Assembly: GCA_963848295.1 (NCBI GenBank) | Contig: CAWKDB010000011.1 | Coordinates: 128,001-192,000 of the forward strand | Direction of reading: 5' to 3' | Length of the DNA stretch: 64,000 nucleotides | From: an uncultured delta proteobacterium | GTDB lineage: Bacteria > Myxococcota_A > Polyangia > Haliangiales > Haliangiaceae | Shown: positions 17,911 through 27,699 of the stretch, in pieces | Layout: every line of letters begins with the position of its first letter | How positions within the stretch are numbered: the stretch's first letter is position 1 | Program-made: the position numbers and the translations under genes | Notes under the pieces: model-generated | What the model was told of the DNA's origin: nothing | Databases searched by the model: none | What the model saw: only the letters and a program-made list of their open reading frames with translations

Positions 17911-18939
17911 ATGGCGCTCACCTACAAAGACGCCGGGGTCGACATCGATGCCGGCGAGGCGCTGGTCGATCGCATCGCCCCGCTCGCGAAGGCGACCACG
18001 CGGCCCGAGGTGCTCGGCGGCATCGGCGGGTTCGCCGCGCTGTGCCGGATCCCGACCGGCTATGTCGAGCCGATCCTGGTCAGCGGCACCGACGGGGTCG
18101 GCACGAAGCTCAAGACCGCGCTCGCGTCGGGCCGCCACGGCACGATCGGCATCGACCTCGTCGCGATGTGCGTCAACGACGTGCTCGTCACCGGCGCCGA
18201 GCCGCTGTTCTTTCTCGACTACTTCGCGACCGGTGCGCTCGACGTCGACGTCGCGGCCTCGGTGATCGCGGGGATCGCCGACGGCTGCAAGCAAGCGGGC
18301 TGCGCGCTCGTCGGCGGCGAGACCGCCGAGCTGCCGGGCCTGTATCACGGTCGCGACTACGACCTCGCCGGGTTCTGCGTCGGCGTGGTCGAGCGCGCCG
18401 AGATCCGCCCGCGCGCGCGCGACCTCGCGGCCGGAGATGTCGTGATCGGCTTGCCGTCGGCGGGCTTGCACTCGAATGGCCATTCGCTCGCGCGCAAGGT
18501 CGTGCTCGACGTGTTGCAGCTGCCGCTCGATGCGAAGCCGGAGTTGCTCGAAGGTGCGAGCGTCGCCGACGAGCTGCTGCGCCCGACGCTCATCTACGCC
18601 GATGCGTTTCGCGCGCTGCGCGGCCAGCCGTGGAAGGCCGCCGCGCACATCACCGGCGGCGGGCTGATCGAGAATCCGCCGCGGATCTTCGGCGACGATG
18701 CGCTCGCGGTCGAGCTCGATCACGCGACGTGGGATCGACCGGCGATCATGAAGCTGATCGCGACCGCCGGCGTTAGCGACGACGAGATGCTGCGCACGTT
18801 CAACTGCGGCTTGGGCATGATCGTCGTCGTGGCGCCGGAGTACGCCGAGCGCACCGTTTCGCTGCTCGCGCCAGCGCGCGCCCGGGTCGTCGGCAGGCTC
18901 GTCGCACGCGGCAGCGGGTCGGCGTCGCGGCTGGTGTGA
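17911..18939 (+). CDS. purM: phosphoribosylformylglycinamidine cyclo-ligase
   Basis: [48 protein letters not shown]. Confidence 0.98.
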
Positions 18940-19547
18940 TGCGGATCGGCGTCTTGGTCTCTGGCAACGGGACGAACTTGCAGGCCCTGCTCGATGCCGA
19001 GGCCCGCGGCGCGCTCGCCCCCGCGACGATCGCGATCGTGATCTCGAATCGGCCGAACGCGCCCGCGCTCGACCGAGCGACGCTCGCCGGCGTGCCGACC
19101 GAGACGGTCGATCACGCGGGGTTCGCGGATCGCAGCGGGTTCGAGACGAAGCTGCTCGAGGTGCTCGCCGGCCACCGCGTCGAGGCGGTCGTGCTCGCCG
19201 GGTTCATGCGCAAGCTGACCGCGACGTTCGTCGCTGCGTTTCCGCTCCGGATCGTCAACACACATCCGTCGTTACTGCCCGCGTTCCCCGGCCTCGACGC
19301 GCCGGGCCAGGCGATCGCGCACGGCGCGAAGGTCAGCGGCGTGACCGTGCACTTCGTCGACGCGACCCTCGACGGCGGCCCGATCATCGCGCAGGCCGCG
19401 GTGCCGATCCTCGAAAGCGATGACGCCGCGGCGTTGCACGCGCGGATCCAGCGCGAAGAGCATCGCCTCCTGCCCGAGGTCGTGCGTGCACTCGCGTCGC
19501 ACGCACTCACCGTCCGCGGCCGAACCGTGGTTAATTCGGGTTCCTAG
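18939..19547 (+). CDS. purN: phosphoribosylglycinamide formyltransferase
   Basis: SGNGTNLQA, LAGFMR, NTHPSLLPAFPG, DGGPII. Confidence 0.97.
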   Translation: MRIGVLVSGNGTNLQALLDAEARGALAPATIAIVISNRPNAPALDRATLAGVPTETVDHAGFADRSGFETKLLEVLAGHRVEAVVLAGFMRKLTATFVAAFPLRIVNTHPSLLPAFPGLDAPGQAIAHGAKVSGVTVHFVDATLDGGPIIAQAAVPILESDDAAALHARIQREEHRLLPEVVRALASHALTVRGRTVVNSGS

Positions 19548-21058: not shown

Positions 21059-21730
21059 ATGGGGTACGCTCGTTCGCGCTTCTCGACCCAGATGACCGCC
21101 GTCATTGCGGTGGCCGCTGCGGTTGTCGCCGTGGTGCTCGTGATCTTCGGCGCGTTGTTCTCCGGCTGCGACGTCCGGTATCGCTCGCAGAAGGCCGCGT
21201 GTCGCGGTGGTGATGTCGAGCAGTGCCTCGCCGTCGCCAAGATCTACGACGACAAGGGCGATGCGCTGCTCGCCGATGTCCTTCACTACGGCGACGCCAC
21301 GCGGGAGTACTACAAGCGTGCCTGCGATCTCGGCTCACCCGTCGGTTGCGCGGGTTTCGCCAAGCACTCGTACGACGACTCCGAAGCCGGCGCGCGGATC
21401 CACGCCCACACGACGGCGTGCGCCGGCGGGATCGCCGCGTCGTGCGTCGAGCTCGGGGACGCGTACGCGACCGGGCAGGACGTTCCGCGCGACGACGCGC
21501 GCGCGCTGACGCTCTACCTGTCGGGCTGCACCGCAAAGGACGGCAAAGCGTGCGAGGACGCGGCGATCATGCGCGCGATGGGGCGAGGCGCCGCGCACGA
21601 CGACGGGGTGGCACTCGACCTCGACAAGCAAGGCTGCGCGGCCGGCGACAAGAACGCGTGCGTCGAAGTCGAATGGTACGCCGCCCATCACGAGTTTCGC
21701 TGGCAGTCGGAGCGCAAGCAGCCGCACTGA
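21059..21730 (+). CDS. Sel1-like (Hcp-type) Cys-repeat protein
   Basis: Repeats YKRACDLGSPVGC, ACAGGIAASCVELG, GCAAGDKNAC. Confidence 0.8.
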   Translation: MGYARSRFSTQMTAVIAVAAAVVAVVLVIFGALFSGCDVRYRSQKAACRGGDVEQCLAVAKIYDDKGDALLADVLHYGDATREYYKRACDLGSPVGCAGFAKHSYDDSEAGARIHAHTTACAGGIAASCVELGDAYATGQDVPRDDARALTLYLSGCTAKDGKACEDAAIMRAMGRGAAHDDGVALDLDKQGCAAGDKNACVEVEWYAAHHEFRWQSERKQPH

Positions 21731-21851: not shown

Positions 21852-22763
21852 TTACGACGACGGTCGCGTACCCTTGGTGATGCCGTTGAGCTCGCAGAAC
21901 GCCTTGTAGTAACCGTACGAGGCGAACCGCAGCGTGGTGTTATCGTACGCGAGCGCGTCGCCGAGAACGTCTGTCTGCCTGTGGTTTGCGCAGACCGGCG
22001 TCTCGAGGCCGCGCAGCCCGTCGCGGAGCTTCTCGGACGCCGACTTCTCGAGCGGGCTCGGGTTGCGGGACGATCTCCACATAAGCGCGTTTAGGACGGC
22101 GCCATCGCCGGCGTTACCTCGGTCGCAGTTGCCGATCTTTCGGCGCAGCGGCGCGTCGGTTGCGCAGCAGACCGCGCACATTGCGGGGAACTGACACTCC
22201 AGCGTGTGGTCGGCATCGTCACCGCGCTTGACGAGGGGCAAGTACTGGTCCGACGTCACGTGGTAGTGCGTGAAGCAGGTGTCGCTTGCGTCGAGCGATT
22301 GCTCCCTGACCTCGAGTGTATCGATGTGGATCCGGAGGTACGCGATGCAAGCGCCGCATTCCGTCGGGTCCCCCTCGTCCTCGGCCTTCTGCAGCGCCCG
22401 CCGTCTCGCCTTCTTCGAGAGCTTCGCCAGCTCCTTCGTCGGCGCCGGTTGCTCCGAGAAGCTGCGCGCGCGCTCGATCCCGCACACGGGGCAGGCGCTC
22501 GCGATCACCGGGGTGCGCCGTGCCGTGGCGAACAGCCAGACGCCGAACGCGGCGATCGCCAGCCCGGCGATCGAGAGCAGACCGCCGCAGAGCGTACCGC
22601 CGAAGTTGTCGCCGAACGGATCCTCGACGTGACATAGCCCGATGAACCAGTGGATCGCGAGCACCGCACAGAGCGGTGACACGACGAAGATGATGATCAT
22701 CTCCTTCTGCGGAATGCCCTTCCAGTAACTGAGCCGCTTGCCGACGACGACATTCTGCGTCAT
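21852..22763 (-). CDS. hypothetical membrane protein with CxxC motifs; start codon lies at the group II intron junction
   Basis: Two TM segments; CPVC, CGAC, CAVC. The ATG is made of the intron-terminal AT plus G. Confidence 0.7.
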   Translation of the reverse strand: MTQNVVVGKRLSYWKGIPQKEMIIIFVVSPLCAVLAIHWFIGLCHVEDPFGDNFGGTLCGGLLSIAGLAIAAFGVWLFATARRTPVIASACPVCGIERARSFSEQPAPTKELAKLSKKARRRALQKAEDEGDPTECGACIAYLRIHIDTLEVREQSLDASDTCFTHYHVTSDQYLPLVKRGDDADHTLECQFPAMCAVCCATDAPLRRKIGNCDRGNAGDGAVLNALMWRSSRNPSPLEKSASEKLRDGLRGLETPVCANHRQTDVLGDALAYDNTTLRFASYGYYKAFCELNGITKGTRPSS

Positions 22764-23740
22764 TGGTAGATCTACTTTCCCTCGTTATGAGTTTCCGTAC
22801 GACCCCCGTAGAAACCGTGCTTGCGGATTTCCCGTACACGGCTTGCGGGGGGGCTTTCGAGCCAGCGGTCCTGGACAGTCTCCGGATATTCGACGGTGCC
22901 GCGCAGGCGATGGAGTCCGAGTCCGACGAAGTAGTCGCGATCCCATCTCTCGACGGCTGCGGGAGCGAGCTGCCGACTCACACGTTTGATGCGGAGTCCG
23001 CGCAGTCGCTCGTACACGTAGCTGTCGATCTGGTTGAAGCTGCGCGCGGCGTTGCCCGTGGCGAAGTAGGCTCCCCAGCCTCGCAGGATGGGGTTGAGGT
23101 CCTTGATGACCACACGGACATCCGCGTGACATCGTCCTCTTGGTGTCCGATCCTTCACCTTCTGTCGGATCCGCTTCATCGCGCGCTGCGACGGCTGGCG
23201 ATGCAGTGCCCTCTCTCGTGGCCCTTCCCTCCCGCGGCGTTGTTCGTCGCCGCGATCATCGGTACTACGACCCCGTCGGACTTCCGCTGCGCGATGTCGC
23301 CCTTGGCCTTCAGCCTGTTGACGTCACCTCGCCCTGACTCGGGCTGCGCAGACGGATCTCTCGTGTTCCGCGATGATCCTTGCACGCGTGCTGCTCCCCA
23401 TACCCCGCCGAGATCGTCATCGCCTTCCGGTGCTTGCGACGCCAATATTGCCTTCGCTGCGACATGACCAGCTCGGCTCTCGGACTGTTTCTCTGTCGAG
23501 GCTGCAGGCTTCACTTCACGTTGCGGCCCGCGTGCTTGCTTCGAGGTGATCAGCTCTTGCTGCCTCCCTCGCTTTCGATGCCCGGCTTCAGCCGTCGGGA
23601 TCTCTCCCTCTGCTGCGGGCCTGCTACTCGGCGCTCCAGCGCTTACCGAGACGGGACTTGCACCCGCTGGATCATCACAGCCTGACCCCGGGTTCGTCAG
23701 CCCTTCGGGCCGACGGTCTCCGTCGTCGTCACGACGTACC
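22762..23740 (-). mobile_element. group II intron, internally deleted (RT domains missing, domain X retained)
   Basis: Domain V AAGCCGTGTACGGGAAATCCGCAAGCACGGTTT. Domain VI GGGGGTC/GATCT-A-CC with bulged A at 22767, ending CCAAT. 5' region (G)GTACGTCGTGACG... with DI-III-type elements (GGGTGCAAGTCCC, GGAAGTCCGACGGGGTCGTAGTACC, GGAGGGAAGGGCC). Boundaries +/-1 nt. Confidence 0.88.
22772..23179 (-). pseudogene. group II intron maturase domain X remnant
   Basis: PSQRAMKRIRQKVK..VIKDLNPILRGWGAYFATGNAARSFNQIDSYV; no YADD RT domain upstream. Confidence 0.85.
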
Positions 23741-23763
23741 ACGCAGGAGAGGTTACACCGAGG

Positions 23764-26700
23764 CTAGCTCCAGGGCAGGTTTCGCGTCTGCGCGACCTTG
23801 TCGTAGGTCATCTTGAATGCCCAGTTCAGCTGCTCGTTGGCGCTGTGCGCCAGCTCGTCGAGCTCCCTCGCGTCCGACTTGACCTTACCGGCCGAGCTCA
23901 TCAACACCTGCGTGTTCGCAGGGCTCATGCTGTTGACGCCACTCATGTCGCTCGTCACCTTGGCCGCGTGCTCGCGGACTGCCGCGACGACCTCGTCGCC
24001 TGTCCTGAGTTGCGCGAGGACTTTCTTCGCAGAGCGCTTGTTCTCGAACGTCGAGTTGAGCTTGTTGGTCTGCGCGGTCTGCGACGCGACGAGCCTCTGG
24101 ACGACCGTGCTCGCTTGCGATGACACGTAGGACGCCGCGTTGTGCACCTTGCCCACAGCGGCGGCGGATATCTTGGGCTCCTTCGGTTTGTCTTTGGCCT
24201 TGGCCTTGGCCTTACCCTTCTTCGGGCCGGCCGATAGCGCCGGGGTCGCAGCGGCAATCGGCGCCGGCGGCGGCGCTACCGCGGCCACTGGCCCCTTCTG
24301 GGTAGCTGCGTCGGCTTGAGCCTTCATCTTGTTCGCCTTCTCCGCGGCGACTGCCACCGCGAGACCCGCGAGGAACGTCCGCGCCATGTCTTGCTGCTTC
24401 GCTATGTCCTTCTCGGTGTCCTCGACATCCTTCACGAACGTGGCCGCGTCGTGGACGTTTTGGTCGCACTGCCTTGCGTCGTCGAGGGCCTGATCGGCGT
24501 AGCTCTTCGACTGGGCCTTGACGGACATCGCCGTGTCCATCGTCTGCTTGGCCTTGTCCTGGCCCTGGGTGCCGACCAGCTTCGAGAACTGCATGCGATT
24601 GTGCAGCGCCGTCGTGTACGCGCGCATGTCGCCCATGCTCACGCCGCACAGCCCCTCGAGCACTAGGCTGGCGATCTTGTCCTGGATCCACCCGAAGACC
24701 TTCGCGGCCTTCTCGGCGGCCCACGTCTTCACGTACCACCAGATCCGTTTGATGGGATGCCAGTGGCTTGGCTTCTCGCCGACGTCGACCTTCGGCTGGT
24801 TCTTGCTGGCGCTGTTGGCCTTGCCATCGTCCTGTTTCTTCTCGCCCGCACCGGCCTGCTGATCGCCCTTCTGGGCCGAGGCGCCGGCCGCGGTGGCCTC
24901 GGCGATGGTCCCGTTGATTCCGATCGAATGATCCATCGCCTGCGCCTGTTTCAGCGAAGCGTCATCACCCGCCTGTGCCATTGTCGCGACGGTCAGGAGC
25001 GCCTTGTGCTTGGCCTCCTGCTGCGACTTCTGGAAAGCGTAGGCGACGAGCTTCATCCGCTGCAGATCCTTCGCAGCTTTCGCGAACTCGCCGTCAGCTC
25101 CGGACAGCTTGGGCCAGTACACGAGCTCGGGGACCTCGGCGAGCTTGTCTTCCGGAGCACTACCCGCGGCGGGCGCAGGTTTGGGTGCGGGTGACGGTGC
25201 GGGTGACGGTGCGGGTGCGGGTGACGCGTTCGCGCTGGGGGGGGCGCCCGAGTCGTTCGAGCTCGTCGACGCCGGATCGACCGACATGGTCGGCTCGTCG
25301 TTGCCGTGGCTGTGCTGCGCGTCATGACCCTGGTCCCCGCCGTCCTGTGCGTCGTGACCCTGGTCCCCGCCGTCCTGTGCGTCGTGACCCTCGTCGCCAT
25401 GTTCGTCGGCGCCCTCGTCGAGGCCGTCGAGCATGCTCTCGACGTGCTCGTAGACCGCGATCTCCGGAACCTCACCCCAGGACCACGCATAGATGGCCTC
25501 GCGCTGCTCCGACTTCTCGAGCGTCTCGGCCTCGGCATGACCGCCCTGCTGAGCCTCGATCTGCTTGTTCGCGGCTTCAGCTCTCTCGCCGCTCTCGCTC
25601 TGGAACTGCGCCGCCGCGATGACCTCCATCGTCTTGCCCTTGATGTGCCACATGGTCTCCGGTAGCTCACCACCGTTGGCCTTGATCGCGATCAGGTGAC
25701 GCTGGTCCGCCTCGTGGCGGAGCTTCTTGGCCTCGTCCTCCGCGACCTTGCGCTGGTCCTGCGTAATGTTCTTGTCCTTGAGCCGATTCGCAACGATCTC
25801 CCGCTCGCCCTCGATGACGTCGGTCTCCTCCTGGAACTTCTTCGGGTCTTTCCGGAAGTCCTCGATGTTCTTCTTTGTGGTCGCTTCTTCCGCTTCCGTC
25901 TCGACTTTTTTCTCCCCTCGCTCCTTCGTGAAGTCCTTCCCGCCCTCCTCCTGGGCGCCAGCGACGGCCTTCTCTTCGCCCTTCTCGAGCTTGTCCGCGT
26001 GCTTACCGGCGGCGCGCGCGTTGCGTACGTTCTCTTTCGGCACGTGCCCGTCTTCGTCCCGGTGGTCGGCGATCTGGTTGTTCTGGTACTCGCGCGAGGA
26101 CGAGATGTCTCGGTCGATCCTCGCGCGCTCCTGGTTGCCCGCGTTCTTCCCGGCGTTGCTCTCGAGGGCTGCGTCGAGCTCTTTCTTGGAGTTGTCGGCG
26201 AACTTGTCGATCTGCTCCGTATGCTTTGCGGAAAAGCTGACCTTCTCGACGCGCCCGGCCGCGTTCTCGCCCATCTTCTCGCCGAAGCCGTCGACGCCCT
26301 TGACGAAGCTATTTTGCGATACCTTGGTCGCCCGAGCCTCGACCCCCTTCATGAAGTCCGAGTTGTTGATCTTCGTGATCAGCTTGGTACCGCGGATCTT
26401 CTCGCCAAGCGTGGCCGGTGCGCTCCACAGCTTGCTCATCATGCCCGGGCCCTCGGCCTTCTCGAGCCCGATGCCGAGCTTGTAGCCGATGTTCTTCGCC
26501 CAGTTCGCGACCGGGCCGAGTGCCTTCGCGGCGAACGTTCCGATCTTGTTCTTGACCCCTGTGAACAGCTTCCCGATCACGCCTTTCGAGGCGCCCTGGA
26601 ACCCCTTCATGAAGCCGGGCCCATAGGTCATCGCGAGGCTGAGCACGTGCCCGCCAGCCGACGTCGCCTCGTTCATCATCATGTCGGCGGTCGCGGCCTT

Positions 26701-27699
26701 TTCTTCGTTGGACGCACCCTTGCCGATCTGCTTCGCGAGCACGACGCCATTGAGCCCGGTCAAGATTCCCGACAACACGAAGCCGATCGCGTCGCAGATG
26801 ATGCCGATGACGTTGAGCACGCGCGCGACCGCCTCCACGGCGGCGCCGAGTGGCGGCAGGATCATGGCGAGCAGACCCACGATCGTGAGGACCATGCCGA
26901 TCTTGCCGCACACGTTCCCGACGATCGAGACGACGCTCTGAAACTTCGACAGGCCGCGCATGATCGAGCCGAGGCCGCCCTGGACTTTGTCGTACGGGTT
27001 CGCGCCAAAGATCGCGCCGACGTCCTTCTTGCCCAGGAAGTTGATCAGGCCGCCCTTGGCAGCCTCCATGCCACTCGCGCCGTTCTGGACGTACTTCTCG
27101 ATCTGGCCGTCGTAGCCTTGCGCGATCGCGGCCATCTCCTTGATCTTCGATAGCCGCTCGTTGGTCTCGGTTGACTTGTGCGGGTAGGCGTTGAGCCACC
27201 CGTCGAGGTTGCCATCGCCGGACATCGCCGCGGCGAGGACGAGCTCCCTCGGCGGCTTGAGTGCCGCGTCGGGGCCGGGCATCGCGGGTTTGGCGGCCTT
27301 ACCGGGAGCTTTGGGCGCTGCCGCGCCGCCCCCGGCCTTTTGTGGCGCCTTGGGGCCAGAAGTCGGAGGCTTGGGAGTGACGACCGATGGCGTGTGCGCG
27401 GCGCCAGCATCGACTCGGCCCGGCGGGCTGTCCTTGGCTTCCTTCGCGACGTCCTTGGGGTTGTTCTTCGCTTCTTCGGCCGCCTTCTCGCGCGCTTCCT
27501 TGGTCTGCTCTTCGTACTCCTCTTTATTGATCGGCGCGTCGGAGGCTTTGTCCGCAAGGCCCGACACGTAGGCCGCGGGGAAATGGGCGGCGATCGCCGT
27601 CTCGACCTTCTGGATCGCGGCGTCGTCCTTGGCCGCGTCCTTGTAGGTGTACTTGACCTCTAATGCCTTGGGGTCGAGAGGTTTGTCGGCGGTTGCCAT
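23764..27699 (-). CDS. 1311-aa hypothetical Lys/Ala-rich protein with central hydrophobic hairpin and coiled coils (putative membrane-active effector)
   Basis: Long ORF with protein-like composition; hydrophobic segment at ~aa 250-325; acidic repeats; Pro-Ala linkers. Confidence 0.85.
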   Translation of the reverse strand: MATADKPLDPKALEVKYTYKDAAKDDAAIQKVETAIAAHFPAAYVSGLADKASDAPINKEEYEEQTKEAREKAAEEAKNNPKDVAKEAKDSPPGRVDAGAAHTPSVVTPKPPTSGPKAPQKAGGGAAAPKAPGKAAKPAMPGPDAALKPPRELVLAAAMSGDGNLDGWLNAYPHKSTETNERLSKIKEMAAIAQGYDGQIEKYVQNGASGMEAAKGGLINFLGKKDVGAIFGANPYDKVQGGLGSIMRGLSKFQSVVSIVGNVCGKIGMVLTIVGLLAMILPPLGAAVEAVARVLNVIGIICDAIGFVLSGILTGLNGVVLAKQIGKGASNEEKAATADMMMNEATSAGGHVLSLAMTYGPGFMKGFQGASKGVIGKLFTGVKNKIGTFAAKALGPVANWAKNIGYKLGIGLEKAEGPGMMSKLWSAPATLGEKIRGTKLITKINNSDFMKGVEARATKVSQNSFVKGVDGFGEKMGENAAGRVEKVSFSAKHTEQIDKFADNSKKELDAALESNAGKNAGNQERARIDRDISSSREYQNNQIADHRDEDGHVPKENVRNARAAGKHADKLEKGEEKAVAGAQEEGGKDFTKERGEKKVETEAEEATTKKNIEDFRKDPKKFQEETDVIEGEREIVANRLKDKNITQDQRKVAEDEAKKLRHEADQRHLIAIKANGGELPETMWHIKGKTMEVIAAAQFQSESGERAEAANKQIEAQQGGHAEAETLEKSEQREAIYAWSWGEVPEIAVYEHVESMLDGLDEGADEHGDEGHDAQDGGDQGHDAQDGGDQGHDAQHSHGNDEPTMSVDPASTSSNDSGAPPSANASPAPAPSPAPSPAPKPAPAAGSAPEDKLAEVPELVYWPKLSGADGEFAKAAKDLQRMKLVAYAFQKSQQEAKHKALLTVATMAQAGDDASLKQAQAMDHSIGINGTIAEATAAGASAQKGDQQAGAGEKKQDDGKANSASKNQPKVDVGEKPSHWHPIKRIWWYVKTWAAEKAAKVFGWIQDKIASLVLEGLCGVSMGDMRAYTTALHNRMQFSKLVGTQGQDKAKQTMDTAMSVKAQSKSYADQALDDARQCDQNVHDAATFVKDVEDTEKDIAKQQDMARTFLAGLAVAVAAEKANKMKAQADAATQKGPVAAVAPPPAPIAAATPALSAGPKKGKAKAKAKDKPKEPKISAAAVGKVHNAASYVSSQASTVVQRLVASQTAQTNKLNSTFENKRSAKKVLAQLRTGDEVVAAVREHAAKVTSDMSGVNSMSPANTQVLMSSAGKVKSDARELDELAHSANEQLNWAFKMTYDKVAQTRNLPWS
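25184..25391. repeat. intragenic tandem repeats (12-bp PAPS unit; 30-bp GHDAQDGGDQ unit, ~2.5 copies)
   Basis: GGTGCGGGTGAC repeated at 25184-25225; GTCRTGACCCTGGTCCCCGCCGTCCTGTGC repeated with 30-bp period at 25321-25391. Confidence 0.9.

Follow-up and report, generated by a model that had tools for sequence, protein, structure and literature searches.

How does a group II intron come to lie at the very first codon of a gene, and from which codon is such a gene then read? The question is raised by a locus on the minus strand of the window (the whole stretch of 64,000 nucleotides that was analyzed), where an initial annotation had placed a group II intron within the start codon of a leaderless gene. 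The flanks read as that annotation had quoted them, and removal of 979 nt indeed leaves TAACCT, a spacer of 7 nt, and a GTG joined in frame to an open reading frame (ORF) of 303 aa. The reading that we favor, with a probability of about 0.78, is that the element is a reverse transcriptase (RT)-deleted copy from a clade of introns that are sited right after the start codons of likely leaderless genes (TANNNT box 6 to 8 nt upstream) and carry an AUG of their own at the 3' end; these introns likely find their sites by pairing with the DNA of box and codon, and their RT is likely expressed from the host promoter and start codon. The features on which the argument draws are as follows.

22761..23739, minus strand: group II intron of 979 nt, GTACG...CTACCAATG, RT-deleted (Rfam; ends of a sibling copy; boundaries from EBS3 and gamma)
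23750..23755, minus strand: TAACCT, -10-like box 7 nt upstream of the host start codon, with its 3' half as the predicted IBS2 (sequence; 4 empty alleles; clade sites; putative promoter function)
23740..23743, minus strand: C plus GTG, the original host start codon and end of the 5' exon (IBS1)
23176..23742, minus strand: 188-codon frame that opens at the host GTG and runs through domains I to III, left over from a fusion of start codon and RT; it closes with a TGA overlapping the ATG of the X-domain ORF
23490..23493, minus strand: EBS2 (GAGA), pairing at 3 of 4 bases with 23749-23752 (covariation)
23463..23466, minus strand: EBS1 (CAUG), pairing with CGUG with one G-U wobble
23400, minus strand: EBS3 (U), with A22760, base 1 of the 3' exon, as partner (covariation)
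23276..23278, minus strand: J2/3 (CGA), with gamma as C23278, pairing with the terminal G22761
23206..23209, minus strand: junction of a deletion of ~1,036 nt that removed the RT domains (comparison with the sibling; also spanned by a contig from DNA run X1, possibly the source sample)
22772..23179, minus strand: 135-aa ORF with the maturase X domain and the C terminus of the intron protein (Pfam GIIM, E = 1.1e-16; 76% identical to the sibling protein)
22812..22844, minus strand: domain V with AGC triad and 5-nt loop; at 22835, a G-to-A change private to this copy disrupts a distal pair
22765..22807, minus strand: domain VI, with branch-point A 22767 six bases from the end and GAGGGA at 22778-22783 (sequence)
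22761..22763, minus strand: ATG that closes the intron and shares the reading frame of the host gene
21852..22760, minus strand: body of the host gene (3' exon), 303 aa including the start codon, no known family
23764..27699, minus strand: upstream 1311-aa ORF ending 8 nt before the box; the same neighbor is present in the empty alleles

The presence of a group II intron at this locus was borne out by a match to the Rfam D1-D4-4 model (80.3 bits; 23516-23669), together with a match to the Intron_gpII model of domains V and VI at 22759-22846 that, at 33.5 bits, falls below the gathering score of 40. Rfam, folds, and alignment recovered the hallmarks of the group in the window intron, namely, domains I to VI, the catalytic triad of domain V, and a bulged branch-point A. 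A full-length sibling of 2015 nt lies on the same contig of the same genome (G000:C11:619000-621014); it is 82% identical to the window intron at both ends and encodes an intact RT/maturase (TIGR04416, 417 bits), of which the window copy has just the X domain left. Placing the deletion by BLAST against this sibling showed that the missing stretch contains the RT domains, a loss that had gone unnoticed in the initial annotation. A third copy in the genome is a 3'-only piece on contig C2. All three copies end in CTACCAATG, in frame with downstream ORFs of 303, 184, and 338 codons. At the site of the sibling (L001:8015-8700; G000:C11 near 621030), the box shares bases with the stop codon of a phosphopantetheinyl transferase-like gene. 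Searches of the 303-aa host protein recovered no family in Pfam, NCBIfam, or Atlas, and the 1311-aa upstream ORF likewise has no family match.

For comparison, GTDB contigs were searched with the sibling protein and the best 80 of 597 confirmed matches were kept. Of these 80, 65 group with the sibling in one clade, with an SH-aLRT support of 97 in a quick IQ-TREE run and 95 in FastTree, and 15 fall outside it; L050 was left out of the IQ-TREE run, in which the L039 row was the protein of a nested intron, and the FastTree tree was rebuilt. The sampled clade spans at least 10 phyla, with Sorangium sp. So ce176, Nannocystis pusilla, and Embleya sp. among its cultured carriers, and lies beside a Bacillota/archaeal group in quick protein trees that included five named references and no class C, D, E, CL, or core-F rows. 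The 5' ends could be fixed for 62 of the 65 relatives (L008 is cut off, and L036 and L067, which carry insertions, were left out), giving with the window copy and the sibling a clade set of 64. Ends were located by intron-internal patterns, with seven added after reading the sequence and three having more than one candidate; three members with <30 nt of flank reduce the set for the box count to 61. Because the introns are related, the counts given below overstate independence, and shuffles were made only within three coarse subclades. Three clade introns (L039, L036, and L067) have a second intron or another insert nested inside them, in L039 directly after domain V.

The first point to settle is where the intron begins and ends. 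The initial annotation had the insertion split the codon as GT|G, with an intron running from GGTACG to CCAAT, which has an ordinary AY end and an additional base at its front, and had treated this register and that of 22761-23739 as equivalent. The joined DNA is identical in the two, the GT|G register retains the textbook AY end, and the C of EBS1 could in that register represent a IIA-type delta that pairs with the first G of the exon. Nevertheless, EBS3, gamma, and branch-point spacing all favor 22761-23739, i.e., an intron that sits after the GTG rather than within it, starts with GTACG at 23739 with no extra 5' G, and ends in AUG. In a scan of all intron columns against target positions -20 to +6, EBS3 was the top column: in 53 of 59 introns it can form a Watson-Crick pair with the base that follows the terminal ATG (17.3 expected; shuffles within the three subclades gave a mean of 19.3 and a maximum of 34, with 0 of 5000 reaching 53), against 16 of 59 in the AT|G register. 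Gamma, in J2/3, is C in the clade members, which calls for a terminal G and not for the end with which an A would pair. Gamma and intron end go together outside the clade as well, with G and AC in L068, L072, L075, Ni.ha.I1, and B.th.I3, C and AG in L059 and L077, and A and AT in Rh.sp.I1. Six bases lie 3' of the branch-point A in the window intron, where the accessible text of PMC4748821 gives 6 or 7 as the rule; the GT|G register would leave just 5 and would also displace the GUGYG-like start. We accordingly regard a GT|G insertion as very improbable. A register with canonical ends on both sides (GTACG...AT; 22762-23739) was rejected since its join is out of frame.

With these boundaries, the canonical 3' AY end is replaced by UG and the gamma-gamma' pair is kept as C-G, which is a variant of group II and does not exclude the element from the group. 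Among 62 3' ends, ACCAATG occurs 56 times, ACCAGTG 4 times, and one-base variants of these twice, the search pattern having required RTG; L045 ends in ACG, outside that pattern. In the Paenibacillaceae part of the sister group (L059, L064, L077, and L081), the introns end in AG and have a C at gamma where both could be seen, and some of these Paenibacillaceae introns follow terminator-like hairpins with T runs.

Alignment of the other copies, a check that the initial annotation had proposed, brought out a recurrent target. The codon directly upstream of the intron is ATG in 51, GTG in 11, TTG in 1, and ATT in 1 of the 64 introns, hence ATG or GTG in 62; the intron that follows ATT (L051) has perhaps had its codon altered after insertion. 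A TANNNT box lies 5 to 8 nt before the codon at 60 of 61 sites, against 21 of 2937 RTGs in the same flanks, with spacers of 6 nt (37 sites), 7 nt (20 sites), and 8 nt (3 sites). Kin genomes supplied another 21 5' ends, of which all 21 have RTG before the intron and 16 have TANNNT, so that 5 of 21 kin sites and 1 of 61 clade sites lack the strict box. Together with the covariation of the EBS sequences described below, these figures strongly support a start-codon-targeting lineage, as the annotation had suggested.

The target as it stood before insertion can be read from relatives of the host. Orthologs of the host gene were recovered in 5 of 36 same-genus genomes searched, and in four of them (G002, G006, G018, and G030) an intron-less allele reading TANNNT-N6/7-ATG lies behind the same upstream gene; the fifth (G034) has no clearly readable start. 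An intron-less allele with the box 6 to 7 nt before the start codon was thus found as predicted, though not GTGACGCAG letter for letter, the proteins being 31 to 33% identical. The pair formed by the 1311-aa ORF (23764-27699, minus strand) and the cysteine-rich, membrane-like 303-aa ORF (21852-22763, minus strand) is conserved in at least four same-genus genomes, and a Sel1-like gene (21059-21730) adjoins it in two. A scan of the window genome for TANNNT followed by RTG and a long ORF gave 336 and 360 cases for ATG at spacers of 6 and 7, against about 80, and 390 and 232 for GTG, against about 105. Such box-RTG starts are common in this genome, and their spacing suggests that they are leaderless promoters.

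How might the intron recognize such a site? EBS1 has the form CAY-N and can pair with the start codon together with the preceding base, and the pair at position -4 forms in 52 of 64 introns (34.5 in shuffles). Its counterpart in domain I of the window copy, which the initial annotation had proposed to seek by folding, is found at 23463-23466 and pairs with CGUG (23740-23743). EBS2 is complementary to box positions 7, 6, 5, and 4 in 41, 60, 48, and 29 of 60 introns, respectively, against 24.2, invariant (A-T), 23.8, and 14.2 in shuffles, and anchoring the alignment of sites on the box gives a better fit than does a fixed distance (48 versus 36). At box position 3, no covariation with EBS2 was detected (18 of 60; 16.4 in shuffles), and among the clade introns no RNA partner was found for the invariant TA of the box.

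These observations would be accommodated by a box that functions as a genuine -10 element and by a transcription start on or adjoining the start codon, leaving a 5' exon of about 3 nt. With such a start, EBS2 and the -4 pair could form only on DNA, during homing. A DNA-only role of EBS2 fits with its being dispensable for in vitro splicing in IIE and IIF introns, for which a homing role has been suggested (accessible text of PMC3753933). Splicing from so short an exon would restore a leaderless mRNA. Reverse splicing into mRNA as the main route was considered and is disfavored, as EBS2 covaries with bases upstream of the predicted transcription start. The TA of the box, covered by no EBS, may be read by the intron protein or through entry into a melted promoter, or may reflect survival bias.

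The last of these can be extended into an account of the whole pattern, according to which short EBS matches (RTG and one T upstream) permit wide landing and only those copies that come to be expressed, and are harmless, behind a promoter and start codon are kept. The EBS pairings do total only about 8 to 9 bases, the box TA is unpaired by any EBS found, sampled copies are by their nature survivors, and damaged remnants persist at box-RTG sites. Yet not a single copy away from a start site was seen among the 64 and 21 5' ends, including near-identical young copies (L032 and L033) at different genes; EBS2 follows the box rather than a fixed distance; and ordinary group II introns persist in intergenic DNA (accessible sections of PMC12584367). 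We hold a pure survival filter to be unlikely, but survival of insertions that happened to be well placed could account for some of the pattern, given the lack of covariation at position 3 and the unpaired TA.

Under the favored reading of a lineage that finds box and codon on DNA, the intron protein would be expressed from the same codon. The frame that opens at the host start codon remains open past domain III in 42 of 64 introns, against 0 and 0 for the other two frames; in 29 of 64, among them the sibling with 668 codons, it runs on into the RT as a fusion, which is not the case in the other 35, and in members of the actinobacterial subclade a stop codon closes it after about 125 or 161 codons. 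Some mitochondrial group II introns have an ORF in frame with the upstream exon. The likeness is that the protein is made as a fusion from the host start; the present introns differ in being bacterial, in having an upstream exon predicted to consist of the start codon alone, and in running the frame through ribozyme domains I to III. In the window copy, the 188-codon frame is followed by the overlapping X-domain ORF, which reads through domain V and stops 8 nt before the terminal ATG; this arrangement may hand ribosomes over to the host gene, or it may be due to chance.

At the other end of the intron, the frame set by the terminal ATG extends for at least 100 codons in 48 of 54 cases, against 10 and 22 for the other frames. 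This strongly supports the earlier claim that the host gene keeps an in-frame start codon with or without splicing, as do remnants that head whole genes. Four of these (L130 to L133, at G008:C452, G030:C134, G035:C8, and G014:C18), 317 to 473 nt long, have lost the core domains and kept both ends between a box-RTG and a host gene, whose frame runs for at least 120 codons from the intron ATG; one heads a whole DUF1428 gene (residues 3-105 on model positions 1-101). The 3'-only piece on C2 (L002:5390-5750, near G000:C2 436390) likewise provides the ATG of a PanE-like gene, whose model match, searched from residue 7, starts at model position 5; it lies about 1 kb downstream of a gene that by eye is polynucleotide phosphorylase-like. 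That remnants incapable of splicing still head whole genes supports a start that would be usable in the unspliced RNA. Initiation there would proceed by reinitiation or from a Shine-Dalgarno (SD) sequence in domain VI where one is present. The SD candidate named in the initial annotation, GAGGGA, does form a purine run in domain VI but lies 14 nt from the ATG rather than ~11; a distance of 11 nt holds only for the end of the longer purine run. An SD as a general feature of domain VI was rejected because an SD-like site (scored against an anti-SD hexamer) occurs in 24 of 62 ends, none of them actinobacterial, and GAGGGA in the window is weak and distant. A new -10 box in domain VI before the terminal ATG was also rejected, being found in only 8 of 62 ends and absent from the window. 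The terminal AUG also matches the intron's own EBS1, so that circles or tandem copies would rebuild a start codon for the RT.

Taken further, these features suggest a new target mode, in which a retroelement seeks out leaderless promoters, probably through reverse splicing while RNA polymerase keeps the DNA open, appropriates the host promoter and start codon for its RT, splices (if at all) from a 5' exon of about 3 bases, and through its spare AUG turns leaderless genes into led or coupled ones when it decays. We lean modestly toward this fuller scenario. A rival reading extends the translation switch floated in the initial annotation: either the output or the choice of start codon (leaderless GTG versus led ATG) would be set by splicing that depends on the maturase of the sibling. 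The identical 303-aa frame in both states, the full-length sibling on the same contig, and the intact EBS1, EBS3, and gamma pairings of the window copy are what such a switch would need, and ORF-less introns under trans control are described for Trichodesmium in the accessible part of PMC12584367. On the other side stand the absence of the intron from 4 of 4 orthologous alleles with a readable start, hosts across the clade that are unrelated genes, changes peculiar to the window copy at G3 (1 of 64) and within domain V, and the many broken remnants in kin. With no positive evidence in its favor and SD-like sites in only a minority of ends, we consider a splicing-dependent switch quite improbable.

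The window copy itself looks like a decayed member of the lineage that targets start codons, and its own splicing appears possible but doubtful. EBS1, EBS3, and gamma match their partners, as do three of the four bases of EBS2. The GTACG 5' end, which the initial annotation took as a possible mark of the lineage, is due to a private G3-to-A change (G in 63 of 64) that is silent in the read-through frame; among the first 57 introns, the 5' ends read GTGCG (44), TTGCG (7), TCGCG (4), GTGTG (1), and GTACG (1). At 181 conserved columns, the window copy has 16 mismatches to the consensus and the sibling has 18; since the sibling is as divergent, many of the differences are sublineage traits rather than decay. 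The RT would have been lost after insertion, and G3 and a domain V pair have changed. The host gene is probably read more from the intron ATG than from spliced mRNA, although the full-length sibling on the same contig could help the window copy in trans. Run X1 yielded contigs that cover both the 5' junction and the deletion and extend over the 3' junction by only 30 letters; in four DNA sequencing runs, no joint that skips the intron was found.

Several known groups resemble the clade in part. The closest parallel in position is the IIB1/CL1 clade found at initiation and termination codons of housekeeping genes (Avi.groEL and EcKTE56.groEL), which carries an insertion of 300 to 700 nt at the base of domain I (accessible text of PMC12584367, citing Michel et al. 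2007). Both groups are tied to start or stop codons and leave a usable codon to the host. Here, in contrast, no domain I insertion of that size is present, the distance from the 5' end to J2/3 being 455 nt (377 to 470 in the clade) and a variable stem close to the 5' end not exceeding ~50 nt; the hosts are diverse and the site is fixed after RTG with a box upstream; and the intron has an AUG end with gamma C and an RT frame opening at the host codon. The CL1 protein of that clade has an En domain; the intron protein P0001 ends shortly after domain X, and the trees did not include an Avi.groEL sequence.

In protein and RNA, the clade resembles class F sensu lato (F and g2 to g4) and unclassified En-less introns, as described in the accessible parts of PMC3552965 and PMC3753933, with an RT-X protein lacking En, a IIB-like RNA, a 5-nt domain V loop, and a length of ~2 kb; it also shares the Rfam D1-D4-4 model with Ni.ha.I1 and Rh.sp.I1. 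It differs in that the five named introns compared (g1, g2, g3, and unclassified, including Rh.sp.I1) fall outside the clade and end in AC or AT rather than AUG. The FADD of g2 in RT5, seen in B.th.I3, is replaced by YADD in P0001 and by YADD or YCDD in the clade. The accessible portions of PMC3552965 and PMC3753933 do not mention start-codon or promoter targeting for class F-type introns. So.us.I2 and My.va.I1, of similar size and from similar host phyla (Table S2 of PMC3552965, as far as accessible), may be clade members. Class C (IIC) introns are similar in having a short EBS1 and in targeting a class of expression signal rather than one sequence, but their targets are intrinsic terminators or attC, whereas here the target lies where a transcription unit begins, an EBS2 exists and covaries, domain V has an AGC triad, and the ends misfit the class C consensus in the accessible text of PMC4028801. 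The literature searched, in which subscription papers are thinly covered, yielded no description of these introns, although Michel 2007 or Simon 2008 could mention the lineage.

According to the accessible text of a 2015 review (PMC4424553), bacterial group II introns show three target specificities. The present clade points to a further type beside homing sites, terminators, and attC, namely, the starts of transcription units, across the phyla sampled, and offers a case for how a retroelement may read a promoter, through pairing of its RNA with one half of a -10 box together with some further cue. It likewise provides a case of predicted splicing with a minimal 5' exon and of an AUG end with a C-G gamma pair. 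Its insertion sites would mark putative leaderless promoters in uncultured bacteria, and its remnants show a route by which genes may gain a new initiation region. The window copy is a decayed example, and the value lies in the lineage. Elsewhere in the window, the plus strand carries ORFs at 17911-19547 that by eye are purM- and purN-like.
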